A stretch of DNA of 63,241 nt, counting the filler, from Stramenopiles sp. TOSAG23-6 (taxonomy: Eukaryota): the NCBI GenBank assembly GCA_900128565.1. It is 4 parts of 4 records of this genome, joined end to end, with 100 filler letters (N's around TTAATTAATTAA, not from the genome) between each part and the next. Parts side by side here need not be neighbours in the genome. Positions count along the whole stretch, not along the records: positions 1 to 15,814 come from LT636105.1; 3 more parts are not named here. One strand, given 5' to 3'. Positions 80 to 63,154 of this stretch are shown here, in pieces (position 1 is the stretch's first letter; each line of letters begins with the position of its first letter). A program made the translations under genes and the position numbers. Below the pieces are notes generated by a model. It was given only the letters and a program-made list of their open reading frames with translations. It made no database searches and was not told the DNA's origin.

Positions 80-938
80 ATAATGGTATGTTTTTTTTAT
101 CTCGTAAATTGTGACATATTTCGTATTCAACTGGGATTTCAGATACGATACGCTCCCGCCGTAGTTGTCTGATATAATTCTCGTTATAATTTGTTCCATC
201 ACGACGTTTACCCTTTGAGTTTTGAAAATATGCATGAATGTTTTTAAACAAAGTAGAAGCATTTCTTTGAGGGAAAAAGACATGTATTTTGGAAAAATAT
301 TTCAAAAAAAAAAAACTAACATTTGTTAGGTACAAAATTTCGTACGAAAAAAAAATTGGAATTCGAAAAAAAATAAAACATACATCTTTGTACGTTTTTT
401 CACAAGTTTCTAAGAGACTTTTATCATCACCATCTTTAAACAGTAAATTACATTGAAAAGGAATAGGACATGGCAGTAGATCAATAGCATCATTTGGATT
501 TAAGAAAGAGTCATGGTGACCTACACATGGGAACGTGGAACGGAATGTTTGCGCCACATCCTCACATCTTCGACATCTGTTTGTGACGCCGAAATCGTTT
601 GGAGTTTTGTTTTTCATTTTGTTTGCAGTATTGGGATAAATAGTATTCTCCCTTTGTCCTATCTTCTTGAAATGAATTTGCTCTTGTAATGATCCTTTAT
701 GCTTTATAGCTTTACTCTTATTTCTTTTCTTTGTTTCAGCTTGTAGCTCCTGTATACTAAGAATCAATTGACGCTGCTGCAGCCGTGTGTTTTCTTTTTT
801 TCGATCTTTTTTTGCTACGCCATCATCTTGATAGCTTGCGTTAGTTTTACTACCAACAACTATCAATGCAAACATGATTACGAAAAGCGTATACTCTATC
901 CTATATTTAATTGATAAATGCTTAACATATCTTGCCAT
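80..938 (-). CDS. Hypothetical protein with N-terminal hydrophobic anchor (exons 938-384, 281-80; continues beyond window)
   Basis: ORF 63..1025; first ATG at 938 followed by YTLFVIMFALIVVG; 34-aa FFSYEILYLTN-type segment is a read-through intron. Confidence 0.55.
282..383 (-). mobile_element. Introner-family intron I2, 102 nt, GT...AT, stop-free and in frame
   Basis: aaagat|GTATGTTTT...TTCGTACGAAATTTTGTACCTAAC...AAATATTTTTCCAAAATACAT|gtcttt. Confidence 0.85.
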
Positions 939-1068
939 TCTCTTTCTTAGAGAAGCGATTTGATTTGATTTAGATTTTAGATTTGATTTTTTGATTTTTT
1001 GATTCGATTTTTGAAAAAACAACAATGTATGTTTTTAAATTTGAAATTTCTCCAAAATCTCCTGTGTG

Positions 1069-1086
1069 TTAGGGTTAGGGTTAGGG
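1069..1086. repeat. (TTAGGG)3 telomeric motif in divergent intergenic region
   Basis: ttagggttagggttaggg read directly. Confidence 0.9.
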
Positions 1087-1261
1087 GTAAATGGTAATCC
1101 GGTAACCCGAAAATTTGAAATTGAAATTCATCTTGAATCCGCGAGTGAAAACTTTGAAGAATAATAATAAATAATAGAAGTTTTAAAGTGCTCAATAAAC
1201 ACTTCATTGAGGTGAGCAGCAATTCCACGGGTATACCGTTTTTGCGTTTGTTAATTTAATT

Positions 1262-4200
1262 ATGCCAATAAGAGTTTTATCACCAGAGTTAGTGCGCGAG
1301 ATTTGTTTAAGTCACCCAGGTCTACGAAACTTGAACCTTTCTTGTAATGAGATTACTGTTGTCGCTAACCTTCAGGTCCTACAGCGACTAGAGACACTAA
1401 ATATATCTCAAAATAAAATACACACACTTGATTGGACTAGTTTCATTGGATTACCTATGCTTGCTAAAATTAATGTTTCTCAAAATAGTGTAGAGAATTT
1501 GATTGATAGTCCAAATACTTGTAGGCTGCGAGCTCTAAGTTTTGTTGATCTTTCAAACAACTCGCTTGTTGATTTGACTTCCACTTTGAAATCTTTAGCA
1601 AAATTACCCAAATTGTCCACTCTTCGTCTTTTGGGAAACCCTCTATGTACACATATTAACTATCGGACGAAAGTGCTACAGGAATTACCACATTTAACTT
1701 ATTTAGACGATGAATTCATTTCCTCAGCGGAGAGGAGGTACATTCGTTTGTTAGAGGTTGATAGTGCCGTTGATGGTGATTTTAGTTTATCCTTTCATAA
1801 AAAACAGAGGCGGACATCACCGATTATCTTAGAAAGTTCAGATTCTTTTCATTTACATAGTCCGTCGGAAAAATCTTCACCACGCATAGAAGAATATTCA
1901 TCAAAAAGAGATAAATTAGAAATTGACGCATATTCACCAAAAAGAGATAAATTAGAAATTGACGCATATTCAACTGCTGAAAATCATTCGTCTGCAAGAA
2001 GTTTGTTGCGAGATCGTATGAAAGACTCTGATAAGAAAATAGAATACGACGAACTAGTCAAAACATTACATGCCCAACAATCAGACTTAAATAGTTTGCG
2101 AAAATATTTTGGTGTTGAATTGAATTCTGAAGAGAAATTTGAAAAAAAATTTCAAAATGTGCAAAATTGTAGTAATAACATTCTATGTACGAGTGGAAAT
2201 ATCTCAATAGATCACAAAACGAAGTTCAGAAATAAAGAAAATAATTTCTCAAAACTTCAAATTGAGGTTCAAAGTCAAACAGAAATCAACAACAAAAATA
2301 GATTACGTATCGAAGAAGAAGTCAAATTTCGAACGAAGGAACTTCAAAAACAAGCTGATTTAGCAAAACTTCGTGCTGATGCTATAGAAAAAACCTTAAT
2401 TATTCAAGAAAAAGCATTAGCAACAGCAGCATTTGATTCAAATAAAACTAAAACAAGCCCTAATCAAAGTAAACTGCCTCCAATGACTTCAGAAAGTTTT
2501 GCTTTACTTTTAACACGTTGGAGGACAAGTGTTTTTGAAATGAATATTGTACTTTGTCCATTTTTCAAATTCAAATTCATTTTTTTTTTTAAATCATACC
2601 TAACAAATTTCAAACTTATTTCATATTTCTTCATAATGCTTCAACAAGAACAAAATAAGTTACTTATAAAACTACTTAAAGAAGAACATAACATTGAAAT
2701 GGAAAAAATGCGTGATGAAATTAACGATTCACAAAGAGAAGTCAAAATATTAGAACAAAAAGTTCAAGCTTCCGTCGCTGGAAATGATTTACTGAAATCA
2801 ACCATAGCTGAACAAATAAGAAAAGTCGAATCACAAGCTCAGGAAGAAAAAAATTTAAAAATGAAACAATTGTATTTTATAGTACAAAAATGCGCTGCAA
2901 TGTTCGAACGTAGTGCAATACAAAGCGGTGAACTTGTCGAAACTGCTCTTACCGAATTAAATAGTTATTGTCATCGAGTTTCTTTTGCTAAACGACGTTT
3001 AAACATGTTGCAGAGTTTACTAAAGCAAAAAAAAAATTCTGTTCATAATGAGATGAAAATTTTACAAGAAAGATATGATAAAAGACGTGTTGATGAAGTA
3101 CCTCAAGAGGAGAAATTGTCCAATGCATTAAATCCTGACAAAATCAAAAATATAGAGAAAGAAATAAATACTTCTCTGGTTAATACAAAAAATCCATTTA
3201 AAAATATTAACATTGCTGAACCACTAAAACAATCAGAATTAATGTCTTTATGTACATTTTCATCATGATTTTTTTTAAAATTTATTTTTCATACGAAATT
3301 TTGTACCTAACAAAAAAAAATATATATATATATTTCACAATATATCACATCACGAAATACGCTCGGAAGCTATTCGATTAAGTAAAGAAAGAAGTTTATT
3401 ATTACGTCATATCCAGTTAGATCGTCAAACAATGTTGCAACATCAAAGTTTTAGAGAGGAAGAACATAAAAAGTATGTTTGTGATTTAACTAGAAAAAAA
3501 TCTGTACTTGAGCGGCAACTTGCAGATAATAAATCTGCATTTGCGTCTGAAAGTTTACGACGAACTGCATTAGAGTCTCAATTGGTTGAATTACATACTA
3601 TTATAGAAAAAAATAAATCGGACAATGCCAATATGCGTATAGAAATGAAACGAAATGCTTCATTTATGCAAAAAGAAAAAGCTGAAGCATTACGCATGGC
3701 ACAAGAAGAAGCTATTGTATCAAGACAAAAAATGTCCGTGGAAGCATCTCATGTACGTTTTCATATTTTATTTTTGGTAGAAAATTTTGTAGCGAACTAT
3801 TTTTTACTAAAAAAAAAATATATATATATATATATTTTAGTAAAAATAACCCTAACCCTAATATATATATTTGTACACTACAGTTACGAAGAGATAATAC
3901 AAAACACATTATTCGTTGTCGTCATTTAGAACGTGAAATAATTCGTTTAAAACAGGATAGAGACAATCACGATGTCTCTACTGAAGAATATTGGAAATTA
4001 AAAGTAGGTGAAATGGAAAAAAAAGTTGAAAACGTTCGTAAAGAAAGAAACGCATTACTCTCTGCTTTACGAGAAAATGAAAGGAAAAGTAATTTTAAAA
4101 TGGATACTGATCAGATTGCAGCTAGTGGGAGTAGCCGAGAAAATAGTTTTATTACGCCATCCGGTGCATGTTCAGGATCAGGTGGAACTTCAAATTCGTC

Positions 4201-4522
4201 TGTTGTTGGTAGAGTTTCTAAATCAAAAAAATATAATGTATTTCCAAAACAAATGACAGAAAATAATCCACTTTGTATAAAGGATGAAAATCAATTGAAT
4301 GTAGGTGTAGGGTCAGGTTTACCTAACCCTAATCAATTGAATATATCTTCTTTATGTGATTCATCAGATGAAGATAGTTATAGAAATAGTAATAACGTAT
4401 CTAGAACAGTACATGTCAATAGTATGATAGATGATGTTGGAATGTATGGAAGGAATGGGGATATTAAGAATACATTAGATGAACTAGATGCATTGACTGT
4501 GGCTATATTAGATGATGAATGA
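1262..4522 (+). CDS. N-terminal LRR + CCHCR1(HCR)-like coiled-coil protein (exons 1262-2548, 2642-3251, 3346-3752, 3884-4522)
   Basis: LxxLNLSxNxI repeats with LRR cap (GNPLCTHINYR); spliced motifs LLTRWRTSVFEMNIQ, RVSFAKRRL, KERNALLSALRE, LDELDALTVAILDDE resemble CCHCR1 from recall. Confidence 0.7.
1895..1972 (+). repeat. 36-bp in-frame tandem duplication (YSxKRDKLEIDA x2)
   Basis: tattca[t/c]caaaaagagataaattagaaattgacgca at 1895 and 1931. Confidence 0.9.
2549..2641 (+). mobile_element. Introner-family intron I3, 93 nt, GT...TT, in frame
   Basis: aatatt|GTACTTTG...CATACCTAAC...CATATTTCTTCATAATGCTT|caacaa; TT on both sides; removal deletes a Phe-rich insert from a coiled coil. Confidence 0.75.
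3252..3345 (+). mobile_element. Introner-family intron I4, 94 nt, GT...AT
   Basis: ttat|GTACATTTT...CATACGAAATTTTGTACCTAAC...CACAATATAT|cacat; joins two ORFs in frame (MSLSHHEIRSE). Confidence 0.85.
3753..3883 (+). mobile_element. Diverged family intron I5, 131 nt, canonical GT...AG
   Basis: cat|GTACGTTTT...degenerate core GGTAGAAAATTTTGTAGCGAAC...AACCCTAACCCTAA...CACTACAG|ttacga; restores frame to ORF 4013..4522. Confidence 0.8.
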
Positions 4523-4813
4523 AAAATTTCTATAATTTTTTTTTCAATTTTTAAATTCATTTCAAAATAAAGCTGGCATATTTATGCATTTGGACAATTG
4601 GTTACACAAATTCAAAATTTGATATATATTATATTTTGAATTTGACAGACCTGCTTTTTCTGTAATAAAATGGCACATTAAATTTTGATTTGGCATAAAT
4701 GGGAGAAAAATCTTTTTTTTTTGACAAGCGAAGAAGAGAGATGACAGTGTGTGTGACACTTATAAGTTATACCGCTGTTGTCACTCTTTCCTTTCTTTTT
4801 TTCGACATTCCAA

Positions 4814-6408
4814 ATGTATCATACATTTACCAAATTGGATGTTGAGGATGTAGATGCTGAAATTGATGCATCTTTGGATACGTGGAGTAAGAAGAGAAAA
4901 CGCGTATTGGGAGGTGTTTTGTTGTTTTCGGCATTATTTCTTATGATCAACACTGTCAGCTTGAGGGGGGATACTTCTTTTCGAAACCTTGCCTCGGATA
5001 AGGAATCGGAGAGCAAACATGAAGTTCAAAACGAACACCACGAGGAACGACGCCAAGAAATGAAAAAAAAACATCATGAGGAAGAACAGCACAAGGAACG
5101 TAAGCACGAGATGAGAAAAAAGCATCACGAGGAAAAGATTGCTATCAAAAAGGAACATGAGAAGTTGACGAAAGAATCTGGAAAAGATAAAAAGTTGGAA
5201 AAAGGTTGGGAAAAGATTGAGAAAAAAGACAAAGATGAAAAACCGAAAACAATTAAAAAAGTTCAAGCTCGTGGAAACCTAGCTTTGCAACGTGTATTGG
5301 ATGATGAACATATCGTACCAAGTGGTTTAGTCTGGGTTGGTCATTCTCCTCCTGACACAGACTCTGTATTTGCTGCGATCGGTGCTGCACACTTGTTCCA
5401 CGGAGAAGCTGCGATTGGTGCACCAGAAAATCCAGAATCTGAATGGTGTTTACAACACTTCAAGCTTCCAACACCAAAATTGACAACAGAGCCCAAATTT
5501 CAAGAGGAAGGCATCAAGTGGGGGATTGTTGATCATGGTTCCTCTGGAAAACTTTCCCCGGGTGTTGTTGAACGTAATATTGAAGTTGTTATTGACCATC
5601 ATCAACTTGCTGAAGACGAAGTAAGTCAAAAACATCCAATTAATGTGACTATTCGTCCATGGGGTTCTACGTGTACATTTTCATTATGAACTTATAATTA
5701 ATTTATTTTTGTATGAAAATTTCGTACCCTAACGATTTTTTTCATGATTTCGTTTTTTTTTTTCACAATACATGTACAATATTGGCATATATGTATGCAG
5801 ATAAGCGTGTTACTGTGCCTGAAGATATTGCTGGGGGATTATTTTGTGGGATTGTATCCGATACTCTCAACTTAAGATCTCCCACTGCAACAGATTTTGA
5901 TCGCAAGGCGTTAAATGCTCTCGGTGATATAATTGGTCTTAATAATGAAGCAAAAAGAATTGAATTTGCACGTGCTTTATTCACTGCCAAAAGTAATGTT
6001 TCACACTTATCAATGAAAGAAGTTGTTCTTTTGGATTTTAAAAAATATAGTCTCCCAAATGATGAAGTAAAAAAATTTGGTTGGGGCAGTGGAGAAACTG
6101 TAAATATGGAAGAAACTATCGCTAAAATTGACGAAATAAAAACAGCAATGCTTGAAATAAAGAATGAAATGGGATTGGTATACATATTTTATTCGATTAC
6201 TAATATTGATCCTACGGTTTTAAAACCATTTACGTATATTGTTGTAGCTTCGCCTGAAGATGAGGAATTGGCAAAGAAGGCATTTCCAAACGGGAAACCA
6301 GTCCCTGGAAAATCAGGTTTAATTGACGTAGGAGAGCTAATATCACGAAAAGTTCAATTTATTCCAGGCGTGGAGGATGTTTTAGAAAGTGGAACTTCAG
6401 AAAAGTAA
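4814..6408 (+). CDS. Family II (DHH/DHHA2, Mn-dependent, PpaC-like) inorganic pyrophosphatase with N-terminal membrane anchor (exons 4814-5672, 5774-6408)
   Basis: Motifs GHSPPDTDS, IVDH, IDHH, RPWGSTCTI (across the junction), GIVSDTLNLRSPT, DFK, SRK; hydrophobic VLGGVLLFSALFLMI. Confidence 0.9.
5673..5773 (+). mobile_element. Introner-family intron I6, 101 nt, GT...AT
   Basis: acgt|GTACATTTT...TTCGTACCCTAAC...TTCACAATACAT|gtaca; no AG inside; restores GSTCTIL. Confidence 0.85.
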
Positions 6409-6454
6409 TTTGTTTTACTTATTTATTCAACTTAGCGATTAAAAAGAAATATTG

Positions 6455-7222
6455 CTATACTAAAAAATGTTTTCTTCGTTTTTCTCGCTTTGATTTCATT
6501 TCTAATTGCACTTGTCGTCTAACTATTTTAGACATTCCCGAATGTGCTCGACTTACTCCGAGTACATTTGGCCATAATTCTTGTGTTATATTTGTATGTA
6601 TCATATTGTTATTTGTATCTATCATATTGTTATTTGTATCTATCATATTGTTATTTGTATCTATCATAGTATTATCATTATTTTCAATAGATGTTATTGC
6701 ATTGTTTTTTACTATGCTTGACGAAGATAACATAGGAGTCTTCGATATAGATTTCTGTTGAATTGTCTCAATACTTGCAATATATTTGGGATTTTCACCA
6801 GTTTTTGAGTTTTCCTTTGATGGTACTTCTTCATCATATAAAATGAACTTTTTCTTCTTTGCTTGAATTTTAAAATTCTCAACAATACAATCAATATCGA
6901 GAGTAGTGTCTATCAACCATTCGTGGATTTTCTTACGGGAGTTAATAAAGTTTTCCACGTGACCATTTGATTGACAATCCCAGGGATTTACATTTTTGGA
7001 ATCTTTTGTTGTTGACATGTAATGTTGTTGTGAGATATTTGATAGTCTCTGAGCACGCTGAATAAACATGAGCACATTAGATGCATGATCATTTACATTA
7101 GTAACACTATTTTCTTTACTCTTTGTCTCTATATTAATTTTATTATTACGTTCTTGTCTCAAGAGAAACTGTTGTTTTGCACGTGCAAAGCGAGGCATGG
7201 TATCTATAGAGTCTGAACTCAT
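6455..7222 (-). CDS. Hypothetical protein with MIDTNNN repeats
   Basis: ORF 6455..7342, first ATG at 7222; no recognised domain. Confidence 0.55.
   Translation of the reverse strand: MSSDSIDTMPRFARAKQQFLLRQERNNKINIETKSKENSVTNVNDHASNVLMFIQRAQRLSNISQQHYMSTTKDSKNVNPWDCQSNGHVENFINSRKKIHEWLIDTTLDIDCIVENFKIQAKKKKFILYDEEVPSKENSKTGENPKYIASIETIQQKSISKTPMLSSSSIVKNNAITSIENNDNTMIDTNNNMIDTNNNMIDTNNNMIHTNITQELWPNVLGVSRAHSGMSKIVRRQVQLEMKSKREKRRKHFLV
6590..6670 (-). repeat. 21-bp coding tandem repeat (~4 copies)
   Basis: tatcatattgttatttgtatc repeated on plus strand. Confidence 0.85.
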
Positions 7223-7455
7223 TATGTGAGTGGCACTTCTCAATGAAAATCTAAGGAAAGGATTTGAAATCCAGAACTTTTTCAAATGTGCATACCATGA
7301 AGATACTTGTATTTCAATGCAAAATGTATGCAGGCTAGCCAACTTGGAACTAACTATCTAATTGAAATTCGAATTTTTCCTTTTTTTCTCTCTTTTTTTC
7401 TCTTTTTTTTTCTCTTTTTTGTCGACTTCATTTGTAATTTCAAATTTGAATTTTG

Positions 7456-7475
7456 AAAATGCCACGTGGCATTTT
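7456..7475. promoter_or_regulatory. Perfect 20-bp palindrome containing a G/E-box (CACGTG) in the divergent promoter of PRP31
   Basis: aaaatgccacgtggcatttt. Confidence 0.5.
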
Positions 7476-7586
7476 TTACTTTTTTTTTTTTTCGAGTTCG
7501 TCGTCGTCGAATAATAAATCGAACTCGGTGTGTGAGTCGTGACGACGAACTTCTTCTTCTTCATTCTTGTTTGATTTGGAAAAGAA

Positions 7587-9182
7587 ATGACTGAGACATT
7601 AGTACCTGATAGCTTTCTCGATGACCTTGATGATCTCGACGATGTCGAAGATTCCAATGATATTATTCAGTCGGGTAAAAATGGTGTAGAGGGCGATATA
7701 AACCCATCGGAAAATGATATAAAATTATTGAATGGAAAAGATAGTACGCATAGCAACGCGAATAGGGGTGTAGGTAGTAATTCATTAAAAATACCTTCTC
7801 CGGTAAAGTTTCAAAATGTAGCTAAACTAAGAAGTACTCTACGATATAAAAACCATATGTCGGCTATAAGGGCGTCATTAGAATGTCCCACAAAACCGTC
7901 AATTACAGAAGCAGATAGTGACTACGATCTTGTAATGAGTTCCAATGAGCTTTTGCACGAAATGTCGACTGAAATTTCAAACGTCAGGGTTATTTTAAGC
8001 AAACTATATTTGAAAAAGTTTCCAGAATTGGATAACCTTGTCAAAGACTCTGTGGTGTATGCTAGCGTAATAAAATGTATTGGGAAGGAAAAAGATATTA
8101 CTGCAATTGATTTAGGGAATATTTTACCAAACGCCTTGTGTATGGTTGTTACTGTTACTGCTTCGACTACCGTCGGTACGGATTTAACTGAGAATGAAAT
8201 TGCAGAGGCTTTGTTTGCAGCGGATGAATTACTTGGAATTTCTTCTGATAGAAAAATAATTGTAGATTTTATTGAAAGTAGAATGTGTGCTTTAGCTCCA
8301 AATACATCTGCATTAGTTGGAACAACAATAGCCGCTCGACTTGTATCACATACTGGCGGTCTGCTAGCTTTAGCTCGCATTCCTTCGTGCAATATTCAAG
8401 TGGTTGGTAAAAAAGTAAAAGCGGCAATGGGTTTTGGTGTTGCTGCAACTCAACCAAACGTTGGAATTATTTTTGACGCAAGTTTAGTTCAATCTGCACC
8501 GTCATTTCTTCAAATAAGAGCTTTACGTGCTGTGTCAGCAAAGACTGCTTTGTGTGTCCGTGCGGATTGTGCTGGATCAAGTAATTGTAGTACAGCAGAA
8601 GGGTCAAGAGGTGATATGGGAAGACGTTTCAAGCGAGAACTTGAAGCTAAAATTTTAAAATGGCAGGAGCCACCGAAAGGTAAAGCTCTACAAGCTTTGA
8701 AGGTACCTGGTTCACGACCACCTAGAAAGCGTGGAGGACGCGCACAACGTGCTAGAAAAGAAAAATTTGCAATGACAGAAGTGAGAAAAGCTCAAAATAA
8801 AATTTCCTTTGGTGATTTTAGGGACGAATATGGAGATAATGCCATGGGGTTAAGCAAAGGAGTTCTCGGGAAGGGTGGGATTGTTGGACAACTTCGTGCG
8901 CAGCGAGAAAAGAAACAAAAGTGGATTGATAAAAAAAAACAGAAAGGAAAGGGTAAGTCACACATACAACAACAACGTATATTAAGGAAGATGAACGCTG
9001 GATCCAGTGGTGTGACTTCTGGCCTGGCATCCTCTTTAGTATTTACTCCAGTTCAAGGCATGGAATTAGTTAATCCGGAGTTACAAAAAAAGAAATTGGA
9101 AGTTTTAAGTAATTCATATTTTTCTGAGGATGCATCTTTTCAGAAAGTGAATCATGTAAATAAGAAAAGAAAAATAAATTGA
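7587..9182 (+). CDS. PRP31: U4/U6.U5 tri-snRNP protein Prp31
   Basis: KKFPELDNLV, NOP-domain APNTSALVG...PSCNIQVVG, RKRGGR, SGLASSLVFTPVQGMELVNP. Confidence 0.95.
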   Translation: MTETLVPDSFLDDLDDLDDVEDSNDIIQSGKNGVEGDINPSENDIKLLNGKDSTHSNANRGVGSNSLKIPSPVKFQNVAKLRSTLRYKNHMSAIRASLECPTKPSITEADSDYDLVMSSNELLHEMSTEISNVRVILSKLYLKKFPELDNLVKDSVVYASVIKCIGKEKDITAIDLGNILPNALCMVVTVTASTTVGTDLTENEIAEALFAADELLGISSDRKIIVDFIESRMCALAPNTSALVGTTIAARLVSHTGGLLALARIPSCNIQVVGKKVKAAMGFGVAATQPNVGIIFDASLVQSAPSFLQIRALRAVSAKTALCVRADCAGSSNCSTAEGSRGDMGRRFKRELEAKILKWQEPPKGKALQALKVPGSRPPRKRGGRAQRARKEKFAMTEVRKAQNKISFGDFRDEYGDNAMGLSKGVLGKGGIVGQLRAQREKKQKWIDKKKQKGKGKSHIQQQRILRKMNAGSSGVTSGLASSLVFTPVQGMELVNPELQKKKLEVLSNSYFSEDASFQKVNHVNKKRKIN

Positions 9183-9296
9183 TAAAAAGAATATCTAATA
9201 TAAAACATTGAAATTTATTGAATGTATTGATACTACTTATATCCAAATACATACTTCTTTTTTTAAGTCTATTGTATACATTTTATATCCAAATAC

Positions 9297-15814: not shown

Positions 15815-15914
15815 NNNNNNNNNNNNNNNNNNNNNNNNNNNNNNNNNNNNNNNNNNNNTTAATTAATTAANNNNNNNNNNNNNNNNNNNNNNNNNNNNNN
15901 NNNNNNNNNNNNNN
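15815..15914. other. Artificial contig linker N44-TTAATTAATTAA-N44
   Basis: Six-frame stop spacer, identical at three places. Confidence 0.97.
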
Positions 15915-17113: not shown

Positions 17114-17217
17114 ATGTATTTTGGAAAAATATTTCAAAAAAAATTCTTAAAATATTTGTTAGGTACAAACTTNCGTACAAAAAAACAAATTCAAATTTTC
17201 AAAAAAATAAAACATAC
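17114..17217 (-). mobile_element. Introner-family copy I8, 104 nt, GT...AT, outside any long ORF
   Basis: aat|GTATGTTTT...TTGTACCTAAC...GAAATATTTTTCCAAAATACAT|tatt. Confidence 0.85.
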
Positions 17218-17648: not shown

Positions 17649-19142
17649 ATGGCAAAATTCCAGACTTCGACACAGCGGCAATTTTGGATGTGGAGTATGG
17701 ATGAGTTGAGCTCTTTACGCAAACAAACAAATAATTCATTATACCGTCGCTTTTCCACGACTGAACCATTTTCCCCGGATCCTGATGGATCGTGCAAAAT
17801 ATCAAGAAAGCCTCCTGCTACGCCTGCAACCGCTGTGGCTCAACAACTGACAGAGTTTGCTCTTTTATCGCCTGAACCACTCGCACCTTCTCAAGGTGAT
17901 TCCAACGTTGATAGTGAAAGGAAGACATTAACTGGGCGCAAACGGTCGCGGGAAAGTACCGAAACAGCAACAACACCAAAGCAAGTCATTAAATTTCTAT
18001 CCCCTGATCAAGAACAGTTACTCCTTGAGGGTTATCAAACAAAACTTTTTAAAATTTGTTCGCAGCTTGCACTGAGCGATCGCGTGACTGCGACAGCTGC
18101 TATATTCTTTAAAAGATTTTACGTCCACCATTCTCTTATGGAGTTTGATGCCCGATATATGATGCTCACTTCTATATTTACAGCTGCAAAAGTGGAAGAA
18201 CAAGAAACTCGTGCAAAAGCTGAGAAAATTGCAGATTTATGTTCATCTAATAAGGTACCCGTTGAGTCTTCAACAATCTTGGCTAACGAATTAACCCTAA
18301 TTATGGGATTAAAATGCAATTTAGTGGTACATCATCCTTTCCGCGCCTTGAGAGGTTTCGTGATGGATATTGATAAAGAAGGTAAAAAACGGGCGAATGA
18401 AATCGCTCGCAATGAAAATGTACAGAATGAAGGGATTGCATTTCGATTATGGGAGGAGCCAGGTCGGAAAGCACGTCTCGAACAAATTCGACTTACAGCA
18501 CACGAAATAATCAAAGAATCTCTAGTCACTGATTGTGCGCTTTTATTTTCCCCATCACAGATTGCACTTGTAGCATTATCATACGCAGTGGACAATGCAT
18601 TCCAAAATGAAGATGGATATAATGGGGAAGATGTGATTCAAGCATATTTGAAACAAAAATTTCCTTCGAAATGCACAAGTCTTGTATCAAGTATACAAAA
18701 AGCTAGAATATTAATTGATGCATATAGAAAAAAACAAAATGAGTTAATAGGTCCCAGTGAATCTGCAGAATCTGCTAGAAAGAAACATACACGAAAATTG
18801 CGAAAAATAACGAAAAGGTTAAAACTTTGTCGTGCAGTCATGTATATTTTATTTTTTTTCAAANTTCNANTTTNTTTTNGTACGAAANTTTNTACCNAAN
18901 AAATTTTTTAAGTTTTTTTTTGAAATATTTTTCCAAAATACATCGTTCCAATTATTGAAAAAAACCGCGAAGAAAAACGAAACAGAGAAAAATCTGAATT
19001 AGCAAATTTGAAAACTCATCGTAAAGCTATAAAAAATCAACAATTATTACTTGGTAATAATGAAAATGGGGATAAAACTGAGGATAATAATAGTGATTTT
19101 GTGTTGAGGAGACCCAAGAAACTTTGTCGGAAAAAATTATAA
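17649..19142 (+). CDS. CCNH: Cyclin H (exons 17649-18841, 18944-19142)
   Basis: N-terminal FQTSTQRQFW, cyclin box ATAAIFFKRFY...AAKVEE, LVVHHPFRALRGF, LLFSPSQIAL. Confidence 0.9.
18842..18943 (+). mobile_element. Introner-family intron I9, 102 nt, GT...AT
   Basis: gtcat|GTATATTTT...GAAATATTTTTCCAAAATACAT|cgttcc; opens a terminal exon to stop 19142; many ambiguous bases inside. Confidence 0.85.
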
Positions 19143-19859: not shown

Positions 19860-22760
19860 TATACACAAGGTAGGAAAAAAATAAATAAAAATTCCAATAA
19901 TATATTTCAACAATACATACGAAATTAAAATGAATAATGATGAAAAAAATAAATAAAAATTCCAATAATATTATCAACAATACATATGAAATCAAAATGA
20001 ATAATGATGAAAACGTGCATTTCAAAATTTTCTTTTGTTCCTTTTTCTGTTTTCTTCGATGTTTTTTTTTTTAAACGGTCTTTTCCGCAGACTCGACATC
20101 GTAGCACTTTATGACTGTTTAATAAAGTGCAATACTTGCAACTCCATTCCTTTTTCTCTATATATACAATTAACCCACAATCAGCAATATTTTGTTTATT
20201 TCTATGTTCCTTTATTTTGGAAATAGACTTAGGGTTAGGTTTCTTTTTTTTTGTATTTTGTATGTCTTTATAATGTCCAGTATTATTTGATTTGTCTGAT
20301 GGATCCAAAGTGTTCAAAATACTATTTTTTGTATTATTTTTTGTACTATTTTCTGGATGATTTACTACTGATACACTTCCATCTGGATAAGATATACAGG
20401 TGTCAAGATGTTTTTCTTCATTCTTTGAAGCACTAATAACTTTACTCATATTCGATATTTTTTGGAAAATGTTTTTGCATCTATCCATCAGATTGTCAGT
20501 CTCNTTTTTTTTNCNTTTCGTCAGNTTTTGACAGTAAAATTGACAAACCAAATCCTAACGACGTTGTTGCATCATGTATACGTTCTTCAATGAATGCCAG
20601 CATTACATCAATACCAGATAATAATAGTCGCCAATCCCATTTATTATCAAATACTTGAGGAGATGCTGAGAACGTAAATCCAACAAAATCTACATTCGCA
20701 TAACTTTGAACTAAATGGCGTAAAGCACGAAGAAGAGTCAAAGTTTTTATCGAGCATATACCAATTTTATTAGGGTTAGGGTTAGGGTATATACCAATTT
20801 TATTCTCATGACAAAATCGCATATTTTTATGAGTTATTTCGTTTGAAGTTGCGCTACGATTTGTTCTAGATCTCTTATTTTGTTTTGTATTCAATTCATT
20901 TTTATCTGAAAAACATCTTTTATTTTTAGAGTTTCCATTAGAGTTAGTTGTAGAGTCATTTAATTTGGAAAAATATTTCAAAAAAAATCTTGAAAAAAAA
21001 TGTTAGGTATAAAAGTTCGTACGAAAACCAAAAAAAAAAAACAAAAAAAAAAAAATTTAGAATTTGAAAAAAAATAATACATACATTGAATTTATCTTGA
21101 GGTTTCTTTTTTTCTATAATTGATCTTACATTTGGCGCATGTAAGGCATGTAAAAAATCTGCACCAGCAAATATTATATCGAGCATCGATTGAACAGCAT
21201 TCCAAACAATTTTTCGATGATTTATAGCATAAGGCCACATAGAATTCAGGCTACATTTTGTATCAAACGAATTTCGAATTTGCGTGTTGCGCTTATCTTT
21301 TGAATTCCCTTGTGAATTAGACTTTGTGTCGCATTTTGTACCTAATATATTTATACCGCGTTCCCCGAGCCAATGATGATCCTCAACACCGACCAAGTAC
21401 TGTGAAAAAATATGTCAAATTTGAATTTTGTAAGGTATGAAATTTCAAATTTGGTTTAAAAAAAAAAAAAAAAAAAAAAATCTTGAGCTACTTACATATA
21501 ATAGCCAGATCGTATTAATTTTTGTCTATTTTTTAATGAAGATTGTTTTATTAACTGTGAATTGGGGAATGCATTTGAAAAGAATCTTGGTATAGATTTG
21601 ATACCTAAATGAAACGTTTTACCTACAATCAAGGGAATGTCTTTTCCCCCGAAATGTCCTAGGGTTAGGGGTTTTCCCTCGAAATGTCCTAGGGTTAGGG
21701 GTTTTTTGGTTGGAAATTGTCGGATTATAAAAAGAGTCTCCGGTGGTAATATTAAAAGATCACCAGTATTAATACAATGATTCCATATACGTGCGTAATC
21801 AATCATTGGGCAACCATGTAATAAATTCTCCAATGGAGAATTATTTTCTAACTTTCTAGGGTTATTTTCTAAATTCGTAGGGTTAGGGTTTCTAGTGTTT
21901 GACTTATTATCAGTAGGGTTAGGGTTTCTAGTGTTTGACTTATTATCAGTTTGAGATTGCTGGTCTACAAAGAAATTCGGTAATAACCATGCCTTATCTT
22001 CTCTGTGTATTGCTATAATTTCTACACATCCACTGATACACGAAATAATTGTATTAAAAGGATGCTGTTCCCAATTACCAAATTCATTATTTTTGGAATG
22101 TCCAATAGTTAAAAATTGAAAAGAATCTCCTGGAAACGAATGACTTGAAATATCAGCTGATGTATCAGATGTATCAGATTGTATAGAATTAGAATTTCCT
22201 AATTTGGTTTTATTACCACTTTGAAGCCGTAAGATATCTAACCCTAGACATTCAGGCAATCTAAATCGGAAACGCTCGGCTCCTTTTGTAACACCAAATT
22301 TCCAATTATTGATTTTGTATAATAAACTTCTTCTAGACGATACGTGGGGCTTGGAAATTAGTTTATCGTCTTTGTCTTTTTTATTTTTCAAATGTTTACC
22401 ATCGCCGGATAAAATATGTAGAGCTTCGCGAAGTTTCTTCATAACTGTAGATCTTGGTGTACCGTCTGGAAAAATCTCTTGTATGGGAACTAGTTCATCC
22501 CCCAACATAGTTATTAGATAATCACTGATTGTACCATCATTATTAAGCCACTGATTTGCAAAAGGACAAAAACAGTAATCATCAACAATTTCTGAACTAT
22601 CTGATACAAGGTTAGTGTGACGCGATCCAAAACCAGATTTATACGAAATAACTATGGGGTCGCCACTACAAATATACTTTCCAATAGTTTCTTCGAGTCC
22701 TTTCTGTCGAATACTAATCACCTCTAACGGTAGAAAAGAGGTGAAGGTGTCACGTAACAT
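19343..22760 (-). CDS. Putative chromatin protein: cupin/JmjC-like region, RanBP2-type zinc finger, two Tudor-knot/chromo-barrel domains (3 introns; frameshift near 20500 at ambiguous bases)
   Basis: Five collinear ORFs joined by introns I10-I12; WSCKYCTLLN..RCRVCG; VHYNEWDKKFDEY and IHYKSFNDEWDQWI; GDLLILPP cupin-like motif. Confidence 0.6.
19734..20018 (-). mobile_element. Diverged family intron I10, 285 nt, GC...AT, enlarged by internal duplication and microsatellite
   Basis: gaaat|GCACGTTTTCATC...GAGCCTAAT...ATATTTTTCAAAAAATAAAT|gacg; restores frame (FEMTSYEV). Confidence 0.7.
19803..19860. repeat. (TAGA)n microsatellite inside intron I10
   Basis: agatagatagat... read directly. Confidence 0.95.
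20958..21084 (-). mobile_element. Introner-family intron I11, 127 nt, GT...AT
   Basis: ttcaat|GTATGTATT...TTTCGTACGAACTTTTATACCTAAC...AAATATTTTTCCAAATTAAAT|gactct; phase 0 join. Confidence 0.8.
21395..21495 (-). mobile_element. Family intron I12, 101 nt, GT...TT
   Basis: tatat|GTAAGT...TTTCATACCTTAC...CATATTTTTTCACAGTACTT|ggtc; the nearby CAG gives an out-of-frame join. Confidence 0.7.
21650..21950 (-). repeat. Two in-frame tandem duplications (30 bp and 36 bp), each unit carrying TAGGGTTAGGG
   Basis: KPLTLGHFxG x2 and TDNKSNTRNPNP x2. Confidence 0.85.
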
Positions 22761-26000: not shown

Positions 26001-27797
26001 CCACTGAGAAAATTACAGGGAAAACAGAACCTCCTACGGCAGAGGAACTACAGATCCAAGCCGCAAGACTTGAAAGGTTAAAACAACGTGAATTATCAAC
26101 AGGTATCGTTGTACATGTCATGAGTAAATATTGTGGTACTCGGGTTGCCATACCAACTGAAAGTGTATTAGAGCCTTTCGCCTTCGCTCTAATTGGTCAA
26201 ATTTGCTGTCTCCATCCAAATACGCAAATAACAGCACAAATGCAAGTTTACCGTGACAAAGCAACGGTTGCCGCTTGTGAAGCTATTCAAAAAAAGTTGT
26301 TTTGGATCAATTCGCACATAATTCGAATTTTCTATCATAATGATGTCGCACCGGTAGATCTAAGCTTGGATGAGTTAGATGGGCGTATTACTAAGCTTAG
26401 ATCTGTGCGACAACAGCTATTCGAAAACTATATAGATGCAATGAATCGAATGCAAGTATGCCGCGCCGAGCGAGCTGCTTTCAAAGAGTGGACTAGCGAC
26501 ATTATACATGTTTCTAATCAGTCACTGTGCACTACCATACTTTCTCGGAAAGTGCGCAAAGAAGAAGATTTGGATGATGGCACTTATACTACTGTTGATT
26601 CTGTACAATTGCAGGCAACTTTCCAGAAAATCGGAGGAGAAATTGTCAAAGATAGTACGCTACAAGAAGACGAAATCAAAAAAATATCCCAAGTTCTTCG
26701 CCAACGAATTCGTGATTTAAAGCGCATTTTTGCGTTTTACTGTGCCATGGGGACATCAAATGATGGTAATGATGATGAAGTCGGTGGCGAAGCTTCATTA
26801 GATAAGGCTGAATACTGGCGCTGGGTAAAAGATTGCAAATTTCAGAAGAATCGTAAAGCTTTGCCTTCAGTTCGACTCGATTTAATCTTCCAAAATGCAA
26901 TGACCGATTATAGTAAAACAGGGAAAGCTCGAATAGCAGGATTATCAAGCAACGACTTGGTTGCAAAACAATGGATCAATTCATTGGTTCGCATTGCTTG
27001 TTATCGTTTTCAACATGTGAAGCCGCCATTAAAATTGCATAAACGCGTGGAGAAATTATTACACGAATGGATAATTCCTAATGCATGTATGTTTTATTTT
27101 TTTTCAAATTCGAATGTTTTTTTCGTACGAAATTTTGTACCTAACAAATTTTTTTTCAAATATTTTTCTAAAATACATGCTCTGTCGACATAGATGTGTT
27201 CCGCGATCGGGTGGCTTTAAAAGAAGTTCAAGCTCGTCTTACAGCGATGCGAAGATTCTTGAAGCCAATATTTAATGAATATGCTGCTGATGACGACAGT
27301 GATGCTGCTATTAATTCACTTGGCACTGTCAATGTAAATGAATTAACTACATTTGCAAAAGAATGTAATTTATTTGGTCCTTTGTTTGGATATCGATCAC
27401 TGCGAACAATATTTTGCTACTGCCAACAGGAAGAGGAAGCATTAGAGGAAAACGAAGAAGATGGAGAAGAGTCAGAAATGGTATATTCGGAATTTAAGGA
27501 GGTGGTCGTTGCAATAAGTTGTTTTATGCGACCTAATCCATATGTAACTAGTATGTATTATTTATTACACTTTTGTATTCATATATCCAACGTATTACCC
27601 ATTTTTCTTGTTTACTACACAGCAGTTTTAACACTTGTATAAATATTCATCATATATATACTTTTCTTTTCAATATCAACAACACTACAGTGGAAATCAA
27701 TGCTTATAATTTTGTAAATGAAATGGTGATGCCTGCTTTAGTAAGTTTACCACGATTTGGTGGTAAAAAAAAACTTAAATGGAAGAAACCAAAGTAA
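23075..27797 (+). CDS. Large hypothetical protein with coiled coil and C-terminal EF-hand-like region (exons 23075-27086, 27179-27550, 27691-27797)
   Basis: 1372-aa ORF plus two exons joined in frame; LKRIFAFY...LDKAEYWRWVKDC, MVYSEFKEVV. Confidence 0.7.
27087..27178 (+). mobile_element. Introner-family intron I13, 92 nt, GT...AT
   Basis: gcat|GTATGTTTT...TTTCGTACGAAATTTTGTACCTAAC...AAATATTTTTCTAAAATACAT|gctct. Confidence 0.88.
27551..27690 (+). other. Canonical GT-AG intron I14, 140 nt, lacks the family core
   Basis: acta|GTATGT...CACTACAG|tggaa; in-frame join. Confidence 0.8.
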
Positions 27798-27905: not shown

Positions 27906-30900
27906 CTACCGTTTACCTCGATATCTTAACCCAGAAGAAGTAGAAGACGCAGAAGAAACATTCTTACTTCCCGTCGAAGTAGACTTTGTTACATTTTCGG
28001 ATGTACTACTTAATAATTCCGCTGCGGCAGCTTTCCGTCTACGCCAGTACATAAAGGCGCATCCTCCCCACACAAAAATATTTCCAGAACAGAAGATCAG
28101 TAAACCACCAAACACTTTAATAAATGTCATAAATACTGGCATTAAATCAGAAAGAGTGGTTGCCTTCGCACTTTCCATCATTGCTGAAAATATATCTGGA
28201 GAAAATACCCACGTACAGAACCTATCCCATACAAACGTACCAACTAATGCTAGAGAGACGAGATACATTACATGAAAACGAAATGCATCATCAGGAAATG
28301 GTTCCAAATGAATTAAACCATTTACATATGGGCTTACAGCCCACGCGCATGCACCCACGCCAGCAAAACATAAAAATAACGACAAAAATAAAGCGTGATT
28401 TTCAATTGTACCTTTCATCCATGGTCTACCTTTGTAGTTTACAAATAAAACAGCAACGATTGATGATGTTTCTACCAAAAATACGACTGTATTCATCAAA
28501 TTTGGCATAAATGGACGTGACCACATAAACATAATATCTGCAAAAGGGTCGGCAGTTACATCTGTAATGTCAGATTCTGAGGAATCCGATATTGCTTGGA
28601 GTGCATCATAATCATCATCATATGTCTTTGCAGCATTGCGATTGAAAGCAACCACAGCTTTTAATGCTTTTGGGCCCATTGCTTCTGTTGCTAGATGTAC
28701 TGCTGAAACCATACAATACAAATGTATGCAGGCCTGGCCAATCATTGAAATAAATATTGTCGGGTGAAATAGTGAATGCAATGGCCGTGTACGATGCATT
28801 TTATCTACAGGAGTTGCGTATGAAAAGGCTAAAGATGCAATCATAATAAGCCAAGACGAAGCCATCAACTGCCGTTCCGAACTTCGTGCACCTTCAAGTG
28901 ATAAAGCTGAGAGAGTGTACGCTGAAATTATACATTCAAGCATCATATATAGTAAAAAAATATGTTTGAAGTTTGAATTTTGTTAGGCGCGTGACAAAAT
29001 TGGACAACAAAAACAAATTAAAATTGGAATGAATGATGAAAACATACATGATCTGTTGCTGTTGAAGGGCACTAAGTAAAGTACAACGCCCTTGGCGAAT
29101 AATATCAACAACCGTGCGAATCGTTGGCGTCCTTGAGGTAAAAGGAGCAGCCACTGATGCATCACCTGGGCGCACAACAGGAAGCATACCTCCCATATCT
29201 TCCATATCACCTAAAGCATCCATTGGATTTCCAGAATCTGCTTTGTACACATTATTCTTCGAACCAAGTCTTCTTGATTCCATTTGCATTTCATTTTTGA
29301 CTCGCAAAGTTACATTCTTTAAAGCAGTCAAATTTGCCATGAAACCTGTTTGCCCTTCTGCCGCAAGTCTTGCAAGTTCTTCTTCCAGCATTTCTTTTTG
29401 TTTTCCTGCCAATTCCTTTTGTTTTGTAGCGAGAATAGCTTTAGATTTTGCCTGCATCACCGCCTGGGAACGTTTTAAATCTTCGGCCTGTTTATTCAAC
29501 TCATCTTCAGTACTTCCAGCACTATTTTCAATTTTGGATAATGATGTTTTATCATCTTTAGCTGTCGTTGTGTTGGCATTGCCGTACCCTGAAAGCAATG
29601 CTAGGCCAACATCAGCTTGTTTTAATGCACCAACGTCATTACCACCATCACCACACATAAGAACATGGTGACCTTTACGCCGCTGCATCTCACGAATAAG
29701 TATTGTGAAAAAATATTTCAGAAATTTGAAATTCGTTAGGTATGATATTTTAACTAAAAATAAATGAATTCATTAAAATAATCAAAACGTACAATCTTGG
29801 CTTTTCCTTGAGGAGACATTCGAGCAAATACTTGAATAGCATCAACATGATCCCACAACGTTCCACCACTTTTCTCTGCTGCCGCTAAGAGAACTTTTTC
29901 TGTTACAACCAAATTATTATGTTTTGCAAGTTCAGGAATTCCTAAAGCATTAAAGGGAACAGAAATACGTTCTGATACATCACCCGTTGCAGAATTCCAT
30001 GTAAATTGTTCACCAGTACTATCAACAGTCAATACCAATGACGAATAGCTATCCGTACCGATTTTAGATAAGACATTCTTCTTAGAGTCACTTCCATTTT
30101 GTACAACATTGTCACGGCATATACCCACCTCTTTAGCAACATGAAGCGCTGTCAAAGGCGCATCACCTGTAATCATTGCAACGGAATGGTCAGATTCACG
30201 CAAGGATCCTATTACTATACGCGAGTCTTTGCGAATCATACAAGTGAATGCAATAAAACCAGCGAAATGTAAATTGCTTTCTACCCACTCACGAGATGGA
30301 CCATCACCACCTTCTGTACCGCATTCTCCCTTTGCACATTGTTTATAAGCGAGCGCAAGCACACGCATTCCATGTTCGGCAAGATGTCGATAACTCTCAT
30401 CATACCAAGATGGAGCAGCGCCTTCAGCAAGTAATGATCGTAAAGCTTCAGGGGATCCTTTGACAAGACAATATTTACCACTGGAAAGGCCATTTTGGCG
30501 CCCCTCAACTTTACACACAACACTCATTCTCTGAAGCTTCGACGAGAAATGATACCGATGAAGTATCTTTGAAGATGAAACAGCAGAATTTCGAGCTTTT
30601 TTTTCAACACTACAAATTTTATTACGAATATTATCTATATCCTTTTGTAAATCGGAAATTTGCATATTTTGTTCAGGAGTTGCAGGTGCATTACCCGATT
30701 TGATTAAATCATGTAAAGCCTTCAATTTTTCAGATACCATTTTTTCACGCTTTTTGAGATTAATTGTAGTACCAGGAGTAGCAGTGTTAGTATCTGCATT
30801 AAATTGCCATTGAACGCCTTTTAGAGCCGCGAGTTCTATAGGATCACCTACCATACCAACATCTTTAACCTTTACCAAAGAGTGACACGATGCAAGAACT

Positions 30901-31613
30901 AATGCAGCCTCGGCGGATGATTCAGGTACTGGGCTAGTTTTACGAGGACATTTAGACACATCAAACTCTCCTGACTTTTGTTTTGCTTTTCCTACCTTAA
31001 GATCAGGTTCTGAATTAACAGTAACTACACCAACAGGCGATAACGTATCCGTTGTAATTGTCCCAGTCTTATCAAACAAACAATGTGAAACCTTTCCAGC
31101 ATACGGAACTCGAAATGGCTCGGTGCAAAAAAGACCCGCTTTCGTGAGAGACATGAGGGCAGTATTTACAGCTAATGCCATTTGCAGAGGAAGTCCTCGA
31201 GGAACGACAGATGTGATTATGTAATGAAGAAAAATATTTTGAGTTCGAAATTCGTTAGGTACAAAAACTTTGTTTTTTTTTTAATTGTTTTGGATTGTTT
31301 TTAATTGTTTTGGATTGTTTTGGATTGTTTTGAATTGTTTTGGATTGTTTTGGATTATTTTGGATTATTTTGGATTAGGTGCAAAAAAAGTTTAGGTAAA
31401 AAAACATACATAATGACACATTTCAATAATAATTCATGTGTCGTTCGATCACCCTTTTCAAGTCCTTTCTTCAAGACATATCCAGATGCAACTAAAGCAA
31501 AGAATAATAACAATAATAATGCTAAACCAATCTCTTTGGAATCTCCAGAGACTTTTTGAGTCGATGCAAACTCAATCATCTGCATTAACTCACCTTGCGA
31601 TGAACTGAACCCG
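27906..31613 (-). CDS. ATP13A1: P5A-type ATPase (Spf1/ATP13A1), 5'-truncated (exons 31613-31410, 31218-29793, 29697-29048, 28944-27906)
   Basis: TGFSSSQG, ITSVVP, FDKTGTIT, FSSKLQRMS, MITGD, MCGDGGNDVGALKQA, GDASVAAPFTS, IRQGRCTL, VNYKGRPW. Confidence 0.92.
28945..29047 (-). mobile_element. Family intron I15, 103 nt, GT...AT
   Basis: atcat|GTATGTTTT...GCCTAAC...CATATTTTTTTACTATATAT|gatg; no AG inside. Confidence 0.88.
29698..29792 (-). mobile_element. Family intron I16, 95 nt, GT...TT
   Basis: aagatt|GTACGTTTT...CATACCTAAC...AAATATTTTTTCACAATACTT|attcgt; TT on both sides. Confidence 0.82.
31219..31409 (-). mobile_element. Family intron I17, 191 nt, GT...AT, enlarged by a 10-bp tandem array
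   Basis: attat|GTATGTTTT...TTGTACCTAAC...AAATATTTTTCTTCATTACAT|aatc; restores CVIIITSVVP. Confidence 0.9.
31281..31378. repeat. 10-bp minisatellite (TTGTTTTGGA-like) inside intron I17
   Basis: tggattgttt repeated with variants. Confidence 0.9.
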
Positions 31614-31668: not shown

Positions 31669-31768
31669 NNNNNNNNNNNNNNNNNNNNNNNNNNNNNNNN
31701 NNNNNNNNNNNNTTAATTAATTAANNNNNNNNNNNNNNNNNNNNNNNNNNNNNNNNNNNNNNNNNNNN
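31669..31768. other. Artificial contig linker
   Basis: N44-TTAATTAATTAA-N44. Confidence 0.97.
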
Positions 31769-47480: not shown

Positions 47481-47580
47481 NNNNNNNNNNNNNNNNNNNN
47501 NNNNNNNNNNNNNNNNNNNNNNNNTTAATTAATTAANNNNNNNNNNNNNNNNNNNNNNNNNNNNNNNNNNNNNNNNNNNN
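47481..47580. other. Artificial contig linker
   Basis: N44-TTAATTAATTAA-N44. Confidence 0.97.
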
Positions 47581-61121: not shown

Positions 61122-63154
61122 TCATGGACTAGATGCATTTTGAATGGCTTTTTGTAGAGATTTTTCAACAAGCGGAATAATGGCTGGACTACAATGTGTT
61201 CCATCGCATTCATATTGCTGAGACAAAAACTCGACTTCATAATGACTCTCTTCTTCCTCTCCTAAATTACATTCGCCTATTTGAATAACATCTACAATAT
61301 CTGTAGCATAATCTAAAAGCCAAATTCTATTCAATGCTTTTCCAGTACCTAATATTTTGCGATCAATTAATAATGCTTTGCGTAATTCCATGTTAAATAA
61401 ACGGGTTATTTTAGCACGTTGAATTTCTTTTTCACTTGGTATTTTAGCCCTACAAACATTTTCTAACAATATATCTTTAGTCTGCCTTTTTAGTGTGGGA
61501 GGAGGCACCGGCATGAGAAAGAAGCGAATTTCCGGATATTTTTGAAGAGTTCGATGAATTCCTTCAAGGAAACTTTGTACTGTTTTCTGTACTGCTTCTT
61601 CAAATGATACATACTTTTTTTTACCTACTGCAGTAATGATCCCTTCTCTACAGTCTATTTCACCTACTGTGAGAATAATATCAATAATATTTCCAATATT
61701 TCGATTATTTGTAGTATGAATTTCATTTTCAAATAGTATTAGTCTTTCAATAGCACCAATAAAATTTGAAGTAGTGAGAAACTCAATTGGCGAGGAAACA
61801 CCTCGAAGATGCCAAGCTTTTAATCCAGTTATCAGATGTGGTATAAATACACACCTTTTCATATTATTTTCTCTTGTAGAAGAAGTTAATATATCTTTAC
61901 ATTGTCGCCATGCAAGACTTAGACAATGCGAATCTCCTAATACATGGACTTGACATGTAGATTTATGATAAATACTTTCTAATTCTAGATTGTCCGTCAT
62001 AATATCATTGTTATTCTTTATTTTTACAGGGCAAGGAAGGCCATATTTTGTTACAAGATTTTGTATGAAATGTTTATATCCCCAATGAGTCGGCAATTCT
62101 CGTCTTAAATCCTGTTGAACTTTTATTGGTAAATTTGAAATTTTCTTCAGTAATTTTGTAACACGTTGTAATTGAGTATTTTGAGTTCTATAAGGTGCAC
62201 AATAACATAATTTAAGCAATAATAAAAGTATAGCTAATTGATGTAAATTAGTACTTAAACCATCACTCTTATTTTTTCTAAAAGTAGAGGAATGTTTCGC
62301 TATATATTCACGAAATGAATCTAAAAGATTTATTGCAGAGTCATAGTTTCCAATATATTCAAAACATTGGGACATATTAAATACATGTGATGGTAAAGGT
62401 GTTTTTTGTATATTTGAAGAACAATTTAATGTATTAAACAGATGATGAATGGAAGGACATGTTTCAGTGTTTAGAATTGAATCATCAAAACAAGAAACGT
62501 TTTTAAGAATACTATCAATACTCTTTTCATTGGTATATAGACCACTTTTACGAATATTATCAATATTCTCTTCATTCAATGAAAGTTGTTGAATCTTAAT
62601 TGTTATTCGGTATGCATTTAATGCTTGAAGAAACAAACCATAATCTTTAAGTGTATTTGCAAGACCATGTATGATGAAAAAATATTTAAAAAAAAACTAA
62701 AATTTGTTAGGTACAAAATTTCGTATGAAAAAACATTGGACAAAAAATTGAAATGAAAACGTACATGAAACGCATCAATTAATTGTTGATGTTTTTGTTT
62801 CATTTGCTTCTTTTGCTCCTCTTTTGAATATTTTTGATTTTGAATGATTAAAACTAAATCTTGGTTTATAAGTGGAATCGATTTTTTATAGTAATCTATA
62901 GCTTTTGACCATTTTTGTTGACCATGATACACTTCAGCACATAATAATAATGCAAGTGATTTTGTAGCTGCAATTTCAATTTTATTTTCTGATTTTGAAT
63001 CTGAATCGCATAAATCAAGTGACTTATTTAAATAATCTAATGCATCACTGTACAATTTACGTTCTAAAAGCTTACCACCTACTACAAGAGAAGGCCAAGC
63101 ATCTGCGGGAGTACACAAAATTGGCCATAAAAATTGTTTCGCTTCCTGTATTGC
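61122..63154 (-). CDS. TPR-repeat protein with C-terminal SGNH/GDS-like domain, 5'-truncated (exons 63154-62765, 62666-61122)
   Basis: TPR-like YSDALDYLNKSL, WSKAIDYYKKSI; VLGDSH, GEIDCREG, DGTH. Confidence 0.7.
62667..62764 (-). mobile_element. Family intron I20, 98 nt, GT...AT
   Basis: tttcat|GTACGTTTT...CATACGAAATTTTGTACCTAAC...AAATATTTTTTCATCATACAT|ggtctt; in-frame AFHGLANTLK. Confidence 0.88.

Follow-up and report, generated by a model that had tools for sequence, protein, structure and literature searches.

Splice register and possible origin of a GT...AT intron family in the genome of a stramenopile

The two ends of intron I6 lie within a direct repeat, which raises the question where this intron starts and what removes it. 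In the window (the whole stretch of 63,241 nucleotides from Stramenopiles sp. TOSAG23-6 analysed here) the repeat is 10 nt long with one mismatch and has a spacing of 101 nt (TACGTGTACA at 5668-5677, TACATGTACA at 5769-5778). Because of this repeat, 101-nt cuts starting anywhere from 5668 to 5678 yield the identical protein, WGSTCTILAY. The eleven cuts are equivalent and the splice register is undecidable from the DNA alone, as a preliminary description of the locus had recognised. The mRNA codon divides the cuts into two sets: ACA for starts at 5668-5671 and ACG for starts at 5672-5678. An alternative reading with ends shifted to AT...AC had been put forward as well. It is allowed by 73 of the 151 phase-confident copies of the intron family described below, but not by I6 in the form proposed, since a 2-nt shift there gives GT...AC (5671-5771); in I6 the ends AT...AC appear only as a +4 shift (5677-5777), which is peculiar to this intron.

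Intron I6 and its pyrophosphatase host gene

The halves of the host gene match the Pfam domains DHH and DHHA2, as well as Mn-dependent pyrophosphatases in the PDB, in line with a family II (DHH/DHHA2) Mn-dependent inorganic pyrophosphatase. Exon 1 (4814-5672, + strand), delimited by its open reading frame, the DHH match and an RNA contig over 5011-5671, has an inferred ATG start codon and ends in ...TCT ACG T. Exon 2 (5774-6408, +) carries the DHHA2 domain and is covered by Pfam, PDB homologues and an RNA contig over 5773-5883. Between them lies I6 (5673-5773, +), a GT...AT intron of 101 nt in phase 1 with the donor GTACATTT and the end TTCACAATAC-AT, placed by the RNA joint and the family register. 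The upstream copy of the flank repeat, GT (5671-5672, +), is exonic, and its G5671 is the diagnostic base that is present in the mRNA contig; the downstream copy, AT (5772-5773, +), is intronic and forms the 3' splice-site dinucleotide. In a branch-point-like CCCTAAC (5727-5733, +) the putative branch A is 5732, at a distance of 41 nt from the end of the intron. The neighbouring gene encodes a Prp31 that is 97% identical to a protein labelled GSMAST32..., the next matches being at most 46% identical, and because of this source label we infer that the host, an uncultured protist, is probably a MAST-3-like marine stramenopile.

Twelve RNA runs were listed, and the contigs of four were placed on window positions 100-9200. 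A contig of the polyA run X6 (772 nt, depth 4.48), with 0 other letters over 5011-5671, contains a joint from 5671 to 5773 that skips 101 nt with 6 letters of slack and leaves ACG in the mRNA. This is the codon that the earlier lean towards a GT start had predicted for the cDNA, and the sole spliced contig thus bears that lean out. The contig falls in the ACG set and so rules out, for that transcript, both the 2-nt shift and the use of the CAG at 5800. It is compatible with all starts from 5672 to 5678, among which the family position fixes 5673. The joint occurs in one contig of only one of the four runs, possibly from another strain. Intergenic DNA and the unspliced element are covered by runs X1 and X2, which probably contain DNA and were set aside as evidence of expression. 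Their joint from 3274 to 5715 was rejected as a splice: 18 foreign letters lie between its two sides, and another copy of the repeat is involved.

It could be argued that splicing does not occur at these ends: canonical AG acceptors close by would serve instead, or the genes would be broken. In I6 a CAG (5798-5800, +) is indeed in frame, and an AG lies between branch and intron end in 44 of the 151 copies, in frame in 6 of them. The spliced contig bypasses this CAG, joining at 5773 and not at 5800, and the earlier warning that its use would delete a protein segment was justified: the product would read WGST-Y-KRV, and the homologues retain the segment (TATVLKFLF, TATILNKMY). Moreover, the first downstream AG preserves the frame in only 44 of the 151 copies, about chance, and at another family junction the Pfam domain EFG_III continues exactly from one exon (2-31) into the next (32-72). 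Use of canonical acceptors, or breakage of the genes, is in our view scarcely credible.

The register across the intron family

We propose that I6 belongs to a family of spliceosomal introns of ~100 nt that is spread over the whole genome and read in the GT register; its members would start with GTAYGTTTT and end two bases past a conserved ...AATAC, mostly in (C/T)AT. The census sample comprised 760,879 bases, i.e. the window and other loci of the same genome. Seeds for the motif caller were GT donors and the branch motif TACCTAAC; the terminal two bases lay outside the model. The conservation of donor and branch is therefore partly circular. The caller made 180 calls, 166 of them distinct, and missed some copies; the family matches are far above chance (40 of 40 scored at E <= 1.5e-15). 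Similar introns, of median length 99, were found at unrelated loci. The 159 copies with at least 15 open codons on each side have GT (148), AT (6), GC (3) or GA (2) as donor, and AT (128), TT (10), GT (10), AC (4) or AG (1) among their last two bases. After masking of two ambiguous bases for the frame calls, the phase was confident in 151 of the 166 copies and 15 were dropped. These 151 include 115 GT-AT introns and a single GT-AG intron; the 3' triplet is CAT in 101 and TAT in 18 (YAY/YAT ends), and TACCTAAC, the search anchor, is present in 115. The branch A lies 33-46 nt from the intron end (5th-95th percentile). Searches with the element core gave 0 matches in viral contigs and, in metagenome contigs, one locus (L110) with one ordinary GT-AT copy. 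At several census loci (L025, L033, L038, L051, L017 and others) the donor is AT, GC, GA or, apparently once, TT, while the remaining U1-matching donor is intact.

Within the window, further GT...AT members were found at 282-383 (-, AT/AT flanks), 3252-3345 (+), 18842-18943 (+), 20958-21084 (-), 27087-27178 (+), 28945-29047 (-), 31219-31409 (-, with an internal repeat expansion) and 62667-62764 (-). A polyA contig of run X3 ends at 3251 with 17 unaligned letters, a weak hint of splicing of the second of these. Two copies have GT...TT ends and TT/TT flanks: the intron at 29698-29792 (-) and the predicted 93-nt copy at 2549-2641 (+), which is in frame and stop-free. Retention of the latter would insert 31 residues and leave the reading frame intact. 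The copy at 17114-17217 (-) is flanked by stops in all frames and may be part of a UTR or of a broken gene. At 15815-15914, 31669-31768 and 47481-47580 separate contigs are joined by N runs with a TTAATTAATTAA linker; several of these breaks fall within family copies.

The flanks are mismatched in 42 of the 151 copies. Here the GT register leads to 0 stops, a shift of -1 to 1 and a shift of -2 to 4, so that the -1 shift is contradicted by only 1 copy. Random dinucleotide placement is expected to give 3.6 stops for the downstream type and 2.7 for the upstream type, and because of the latter value the contrast of 0 versus 4 is modest when taken alone. The asymmetry of the flanks is more pronounced: AT is preserved downstream in 29 of the 42, upstream in 4 and on neither side in 9 (binomial p 1.1e-5). 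A test on wobble positions went in the same direction, non-significantly (p 0.089). The mismatches are non-synonymous in 32 cases (61 exons scanned), two of which were compared with PDB proteins, one informatively: in a DEAD-box gene (L058) the GT register encodes Leu and the shifted one His, at a position occupied by L, L, L, F and F in the five PDB alignments shown. For the other, an EF-G junction (Glu versus Asp), a PDB search with the 35-aa exon gave no match. The mismatch codons of two window introns are as described previously, and their coordinates were assigned from those codons: I5 (3753-3883, +), a divergent family member, is predicted to be GT...AG with His, or Gln if shifted, and I12 (21395-21495, -) to be GT...TT with Met, or Leu if shifted by 2. 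Among the RNA contigs listed for positions 100-9200, none spans I5.

A separate class of NN-GTA...AC introns had been contemplated in the preliminary description; such introns, mostly AT-AC and removed by the minor or the major spliceosome, receive no support from these data. U12-type introns have the donor (A/G)TATCC and the branch TCCTTRAC near the 3' end. Neither such a donor, ATATCC included, in either register nor the branch TCCTTAAC occurs in any of the 151 copies, confirming the reported lack of a U12 signature, and the branch lies 33-46 nt from the end; the only resemblance to U12-type AT-AC introns is that the shifted reading seems to have AT...AC ends. U6atac and U12 were not found in this incomplete genome, in searches whose controls were silent. 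The shifted class can draw on the 73 copies mentioned above, on the +4 cut of I6, which leaves the same mRNA as the GT cut, and on A-C terminal pairs, which the available text of PMC13326754 describes as isosteric to G-G. It is opposed by the retention of G5671 in the X6 contig, the 4 stops, the flank asymmetry, the His at a DEAD-box position that is otherwise hydrophobic and the pairing with U1, which covers only 3.2 of 11 positions after the shift. We consider it very improbable, and hold with high confidence that the GT...AT register is correct for I6 and family-wide.

U1 and the choice of the acceptor

The 5' end of U1 in this genome, AAACGUACAUGG, differs from the Rfam consensus AUACUUACCUGG by three changes in a gap-free alignment, giving the variant form AAACGUACAU, and is complementary to CAT|GTACGTTT. 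Of these changes, U2A faces +7 U, U5G faces +4 C/U, and C9A faces the U that ends the exon. Over positions -3 to +8 of the 151 donors the mean number of Watson-Crick pairs is 9.17 of 11 in the GT register, versus 3.23 after a shift of -2 and 6.99 with the consensus U1 (duplex -9.05 versus -1.85 kcal/mol). The U1 match scores 54.1 bits (E 5e-13), below the Rfam gathering score of 69.5. The gene is present in two identical copies, and no other U1 was found. A family intron lies on its contig, and the two U1 clusters, although divergent past base 664, have the identical U1; both points speak against contamination and against a single assembly error. As predicted from the gene sequence, U1 appears to have been altered to match the starts of the family introns.

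The other snRNAs look ordinary. U5, U2, U1 and U4 lie head to tail in one 640-bp cluster (L012:9-645) with gaps of ~3-25 bp, on two contigs, and U6 is located elsewhere; the GUAGUA branch box of U2, the U5 loop and the ACAGAGA box of U6 equal the Rfam consensus. The CTAAC branch point is accordingly expected to pair with a canonical U2. Prp8 matches its human counterpart across the searched region, without a telling change in what we take to be the alpha-finger region. Its gene (L117) has no family intron over ~7.2 kb and is uninterrupted save for an N-rich frameshift. A U2AF35-like protein was found neither among 15 zf-CCCH matches nor by a motif search; because the genome is incomplete, the missing U2AF35, U6atac and U12 show nothing.

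The AG acceptor expected of U2-type introns is present in 1 of the 151 copies, and the RNA joint of I6 lies off an AG. First-YAT scanning was rejected as an acceptor rule, as an earlier YAT at least 8 nt past the branch is skipped in 137 of 151. Given these counts and the near-chance frame of the first downstream AG, the position of the acceptor follows neither from AG nor from scanning to the first YAT. We suggest that the introns are removed by the major, U2-type spliceosome, with the changed U1 5' end pairing to CAU|GUA(C/U)GUUU, and that the acceptor is defined by the branch point, a U-rich tract and the ACAAUAC/AAAAUAC motif. In structures of the spliceosome, the A at intron position -2 contacts the branch A. 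A 3' AU would retain this A(-2) and swap only the last G.

Changes of this kind in U1 have been described in Entamoeba and Mastigamoeba, where the 5' arm is likewise complementary to an atypical donor, including an A that extends the pairing to +7 U; there the changes face intron positions, whereas C9A here faces the last exon base, within the duplicated AT (available part of 10.1101/2022.06.08.495308). The same text calls such changes rare, and absent in 69 yeasts, the Mamiellales and Thecamonas. According to the accessible part of PMC13326754, ~99% of introns in most eukaryotes obey the GT-AG rule; of the introns sampled here, about three quarters are GT-AT, and an AG end is found in fewer than 1 in 50. 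With the catalytic region of Prp8 and the boxes of U2, U5 and U6 of ordinary appearance, and U1 showing three matching changes, the case shows how little machinery may need altering for a swap of the acceptor. Gene finders that require AG will mis-model this lineage.

Origin of the family and its relation to other introns

The covariation between exon end and intron end is found at positions -1 and -2 only and is absent at -3 to -6. Among the intron ends other than AT, 15 of 28 repeat the exon end, versus 1.73 expected, and the flank match drops with divergence from the consensus (16/18, 40/49, 31/46 and 22/38; p 0.002). The two-base flank therefore behaves like a target-site duplication that was co-opted as 3' splice site. 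The reconstructed target prefers C-AT-G, and both C-AT-G and the ends CAT-GTA...TAC-ATG are palindromic. Dimeric transposases favour palindromic targets. We propose that a short mobile element, GTA...TAC, duplicated two target bases with a preference for C-AT-G; it would bring the donor and the branch point, while the second copy of the duplication would become the 3' splice site and the first would remain exonic. Three results speak against a plain DNA transposon. The terminal inverted repeat measures only 3-4 bp (85% match over 3 bp, 77% over 4, 55% over 8). No parent transposon was found in a search restricted to PF13359, which gave 5 matches with one element read to its ends, and the comparison of pyrophosphatase exon 2 with metagenome contigs gave no related locus as an empty site.

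Alternatively, the GT register may be right without the repeat being a footprint of insertion: splicing could favour a 3' end that copies the 5' exon end, and the copies would resemble each other through RNA-mediated spread (reverse splicing) or through gene conversion, with the rewritten U1 in place. Several points would fit such an explanation: the C-A-T preceding the donor is itself paired by U1, the inverted ends are very short, the sense frames on either side are confidently open in 151 of the 166 calls, and the one Harbinger element examined has a TTA duplication and GGCC ends, unlike the introns. A repeat maintained by splicing accords less well with a flank match that peaks in the least diverged copies and then decays like a footprint, with the tolerance of mismatches in 42 of 151 copies, and with the palindromic target and ends. 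We regard it as unlikely, and the model as a whole, namely an introner origin, removal by the major spliceosome with a rewritten U1, and an AG-independent acceptor, as well supported.

The family works like an introner of the Micromonas pusilla type spliced by the U2 machinery, and is not of U12 type. As far as the accessible text of PMC11282704 goes, the Micromonas introners also form a repeated family in unrelated genes, in which the element supplies the 5' site and a target-site duplication the 3' site; there, however, an AG is co-opted from a 3-nt duplication and the inverted repeats are clear, whereas here the duplication is 2 nt, mostly AT without AG, the inverted repeat is 3-4 bp and no autonomous partner was found. 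In a survey of introners, the 3' sites listed are AG and AC (PMC12130899, in the part available). The U2-type introns of Fritillaria borealis and F. pellucida share AT as the commonest 3' acceptor (34% and 44%), a YAY triplet at the intron end and often also before the donor, and unchanged recognition boxes in U2, U5 and U6 (PMC13326754, available text), and have a transposon-like origin with inverted repeats and target-site duplications (PMC11282704, likewise in part). They differ in their diverse donors (AG-AC, AG-AT), a strictly conserved U1 5' end and a duplicated U2AF, according to what is accessible of PMC13326754. In contrast, the stramenopile-like host studied here has GT donors in 148 of 159 copies, AT ends in 128 of 159, one dominant family and a U1 changed at three positions. 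Our search of the open-access literature gave no report of a stramenopile with dominant GT-AT introns or with this U1; its scope did not extend to subscription papers or to supplements, whose intron tables could bear on this.

It is conceivable, if somewhat short of an even chance, that one mobile element re-coded the splicing of this lineage: old introns would have been mostly lost, the pattern CAU|GUAYGUUU...AAUAC-NN imposed, U1 rewritten to read the exonic duplicated AU, and AG made dispensable. The acceptor would then lie two bases past a motif borne by the element, and U2AF35 may have been lost or replaced. If true, this would be a major spliceosome with GT-AT as default and a natural test of the near-universality of AG. 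The system ties intron invasion to a change in an snRNA and offers thousands of natural variants for probing the 3' cut.

A family-blind search gave 217 gaps between coding segments on the same strand, 158 of which are family-like. Inspection by eye of 35 of the other 59 identified ~18 intron-less frameshifts (many in homopolymers), 4 intergenic or unclear cases, 10 missed family copies and 3 divergent introns. GT-AG introns are real (L024, L058 and I5) but rare in the sample; an apparent further one, L064:3435-3490, proved intergenic. Three introns lack the family core: one in L058 (-, ~8440-8590), a clear GT-AG with the U1-matching donor GTACGTT, one in L067 (-, ~3000-3150), GT-TT with TT flanks, and one in L030 (-, ~5710-5800), possibly AT-CA with CA flanks. 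They are perhaps older introns.

One PF13359 locus was rejected as parent of the family: L116:503-3609 (C2432, with near-identical matches in C2433, C2439 and C2440) is an apparently intact PIF/Harbinger element with a TTA duplication and GGCC-type inverted ends, unlike the introns. Its two genes, for a DDE_Tnp_4 transposase (1938-3410, -) and, converging on it, a second ORF (839-1750, +), are separated by a stretch that includes the intron core as a short, degenerate copy. The other PF13359 locus, L111, showed no clear ends. Frameshifts in homopolymers are common in this assembly. Telomere-like CCCTAA/TTAGGG repeats occur in introns, e.g. at 3850-3862 inside I5 and in introns of L005 and L036, as well as between genes, with 55 dimers in the 761-kb sample.
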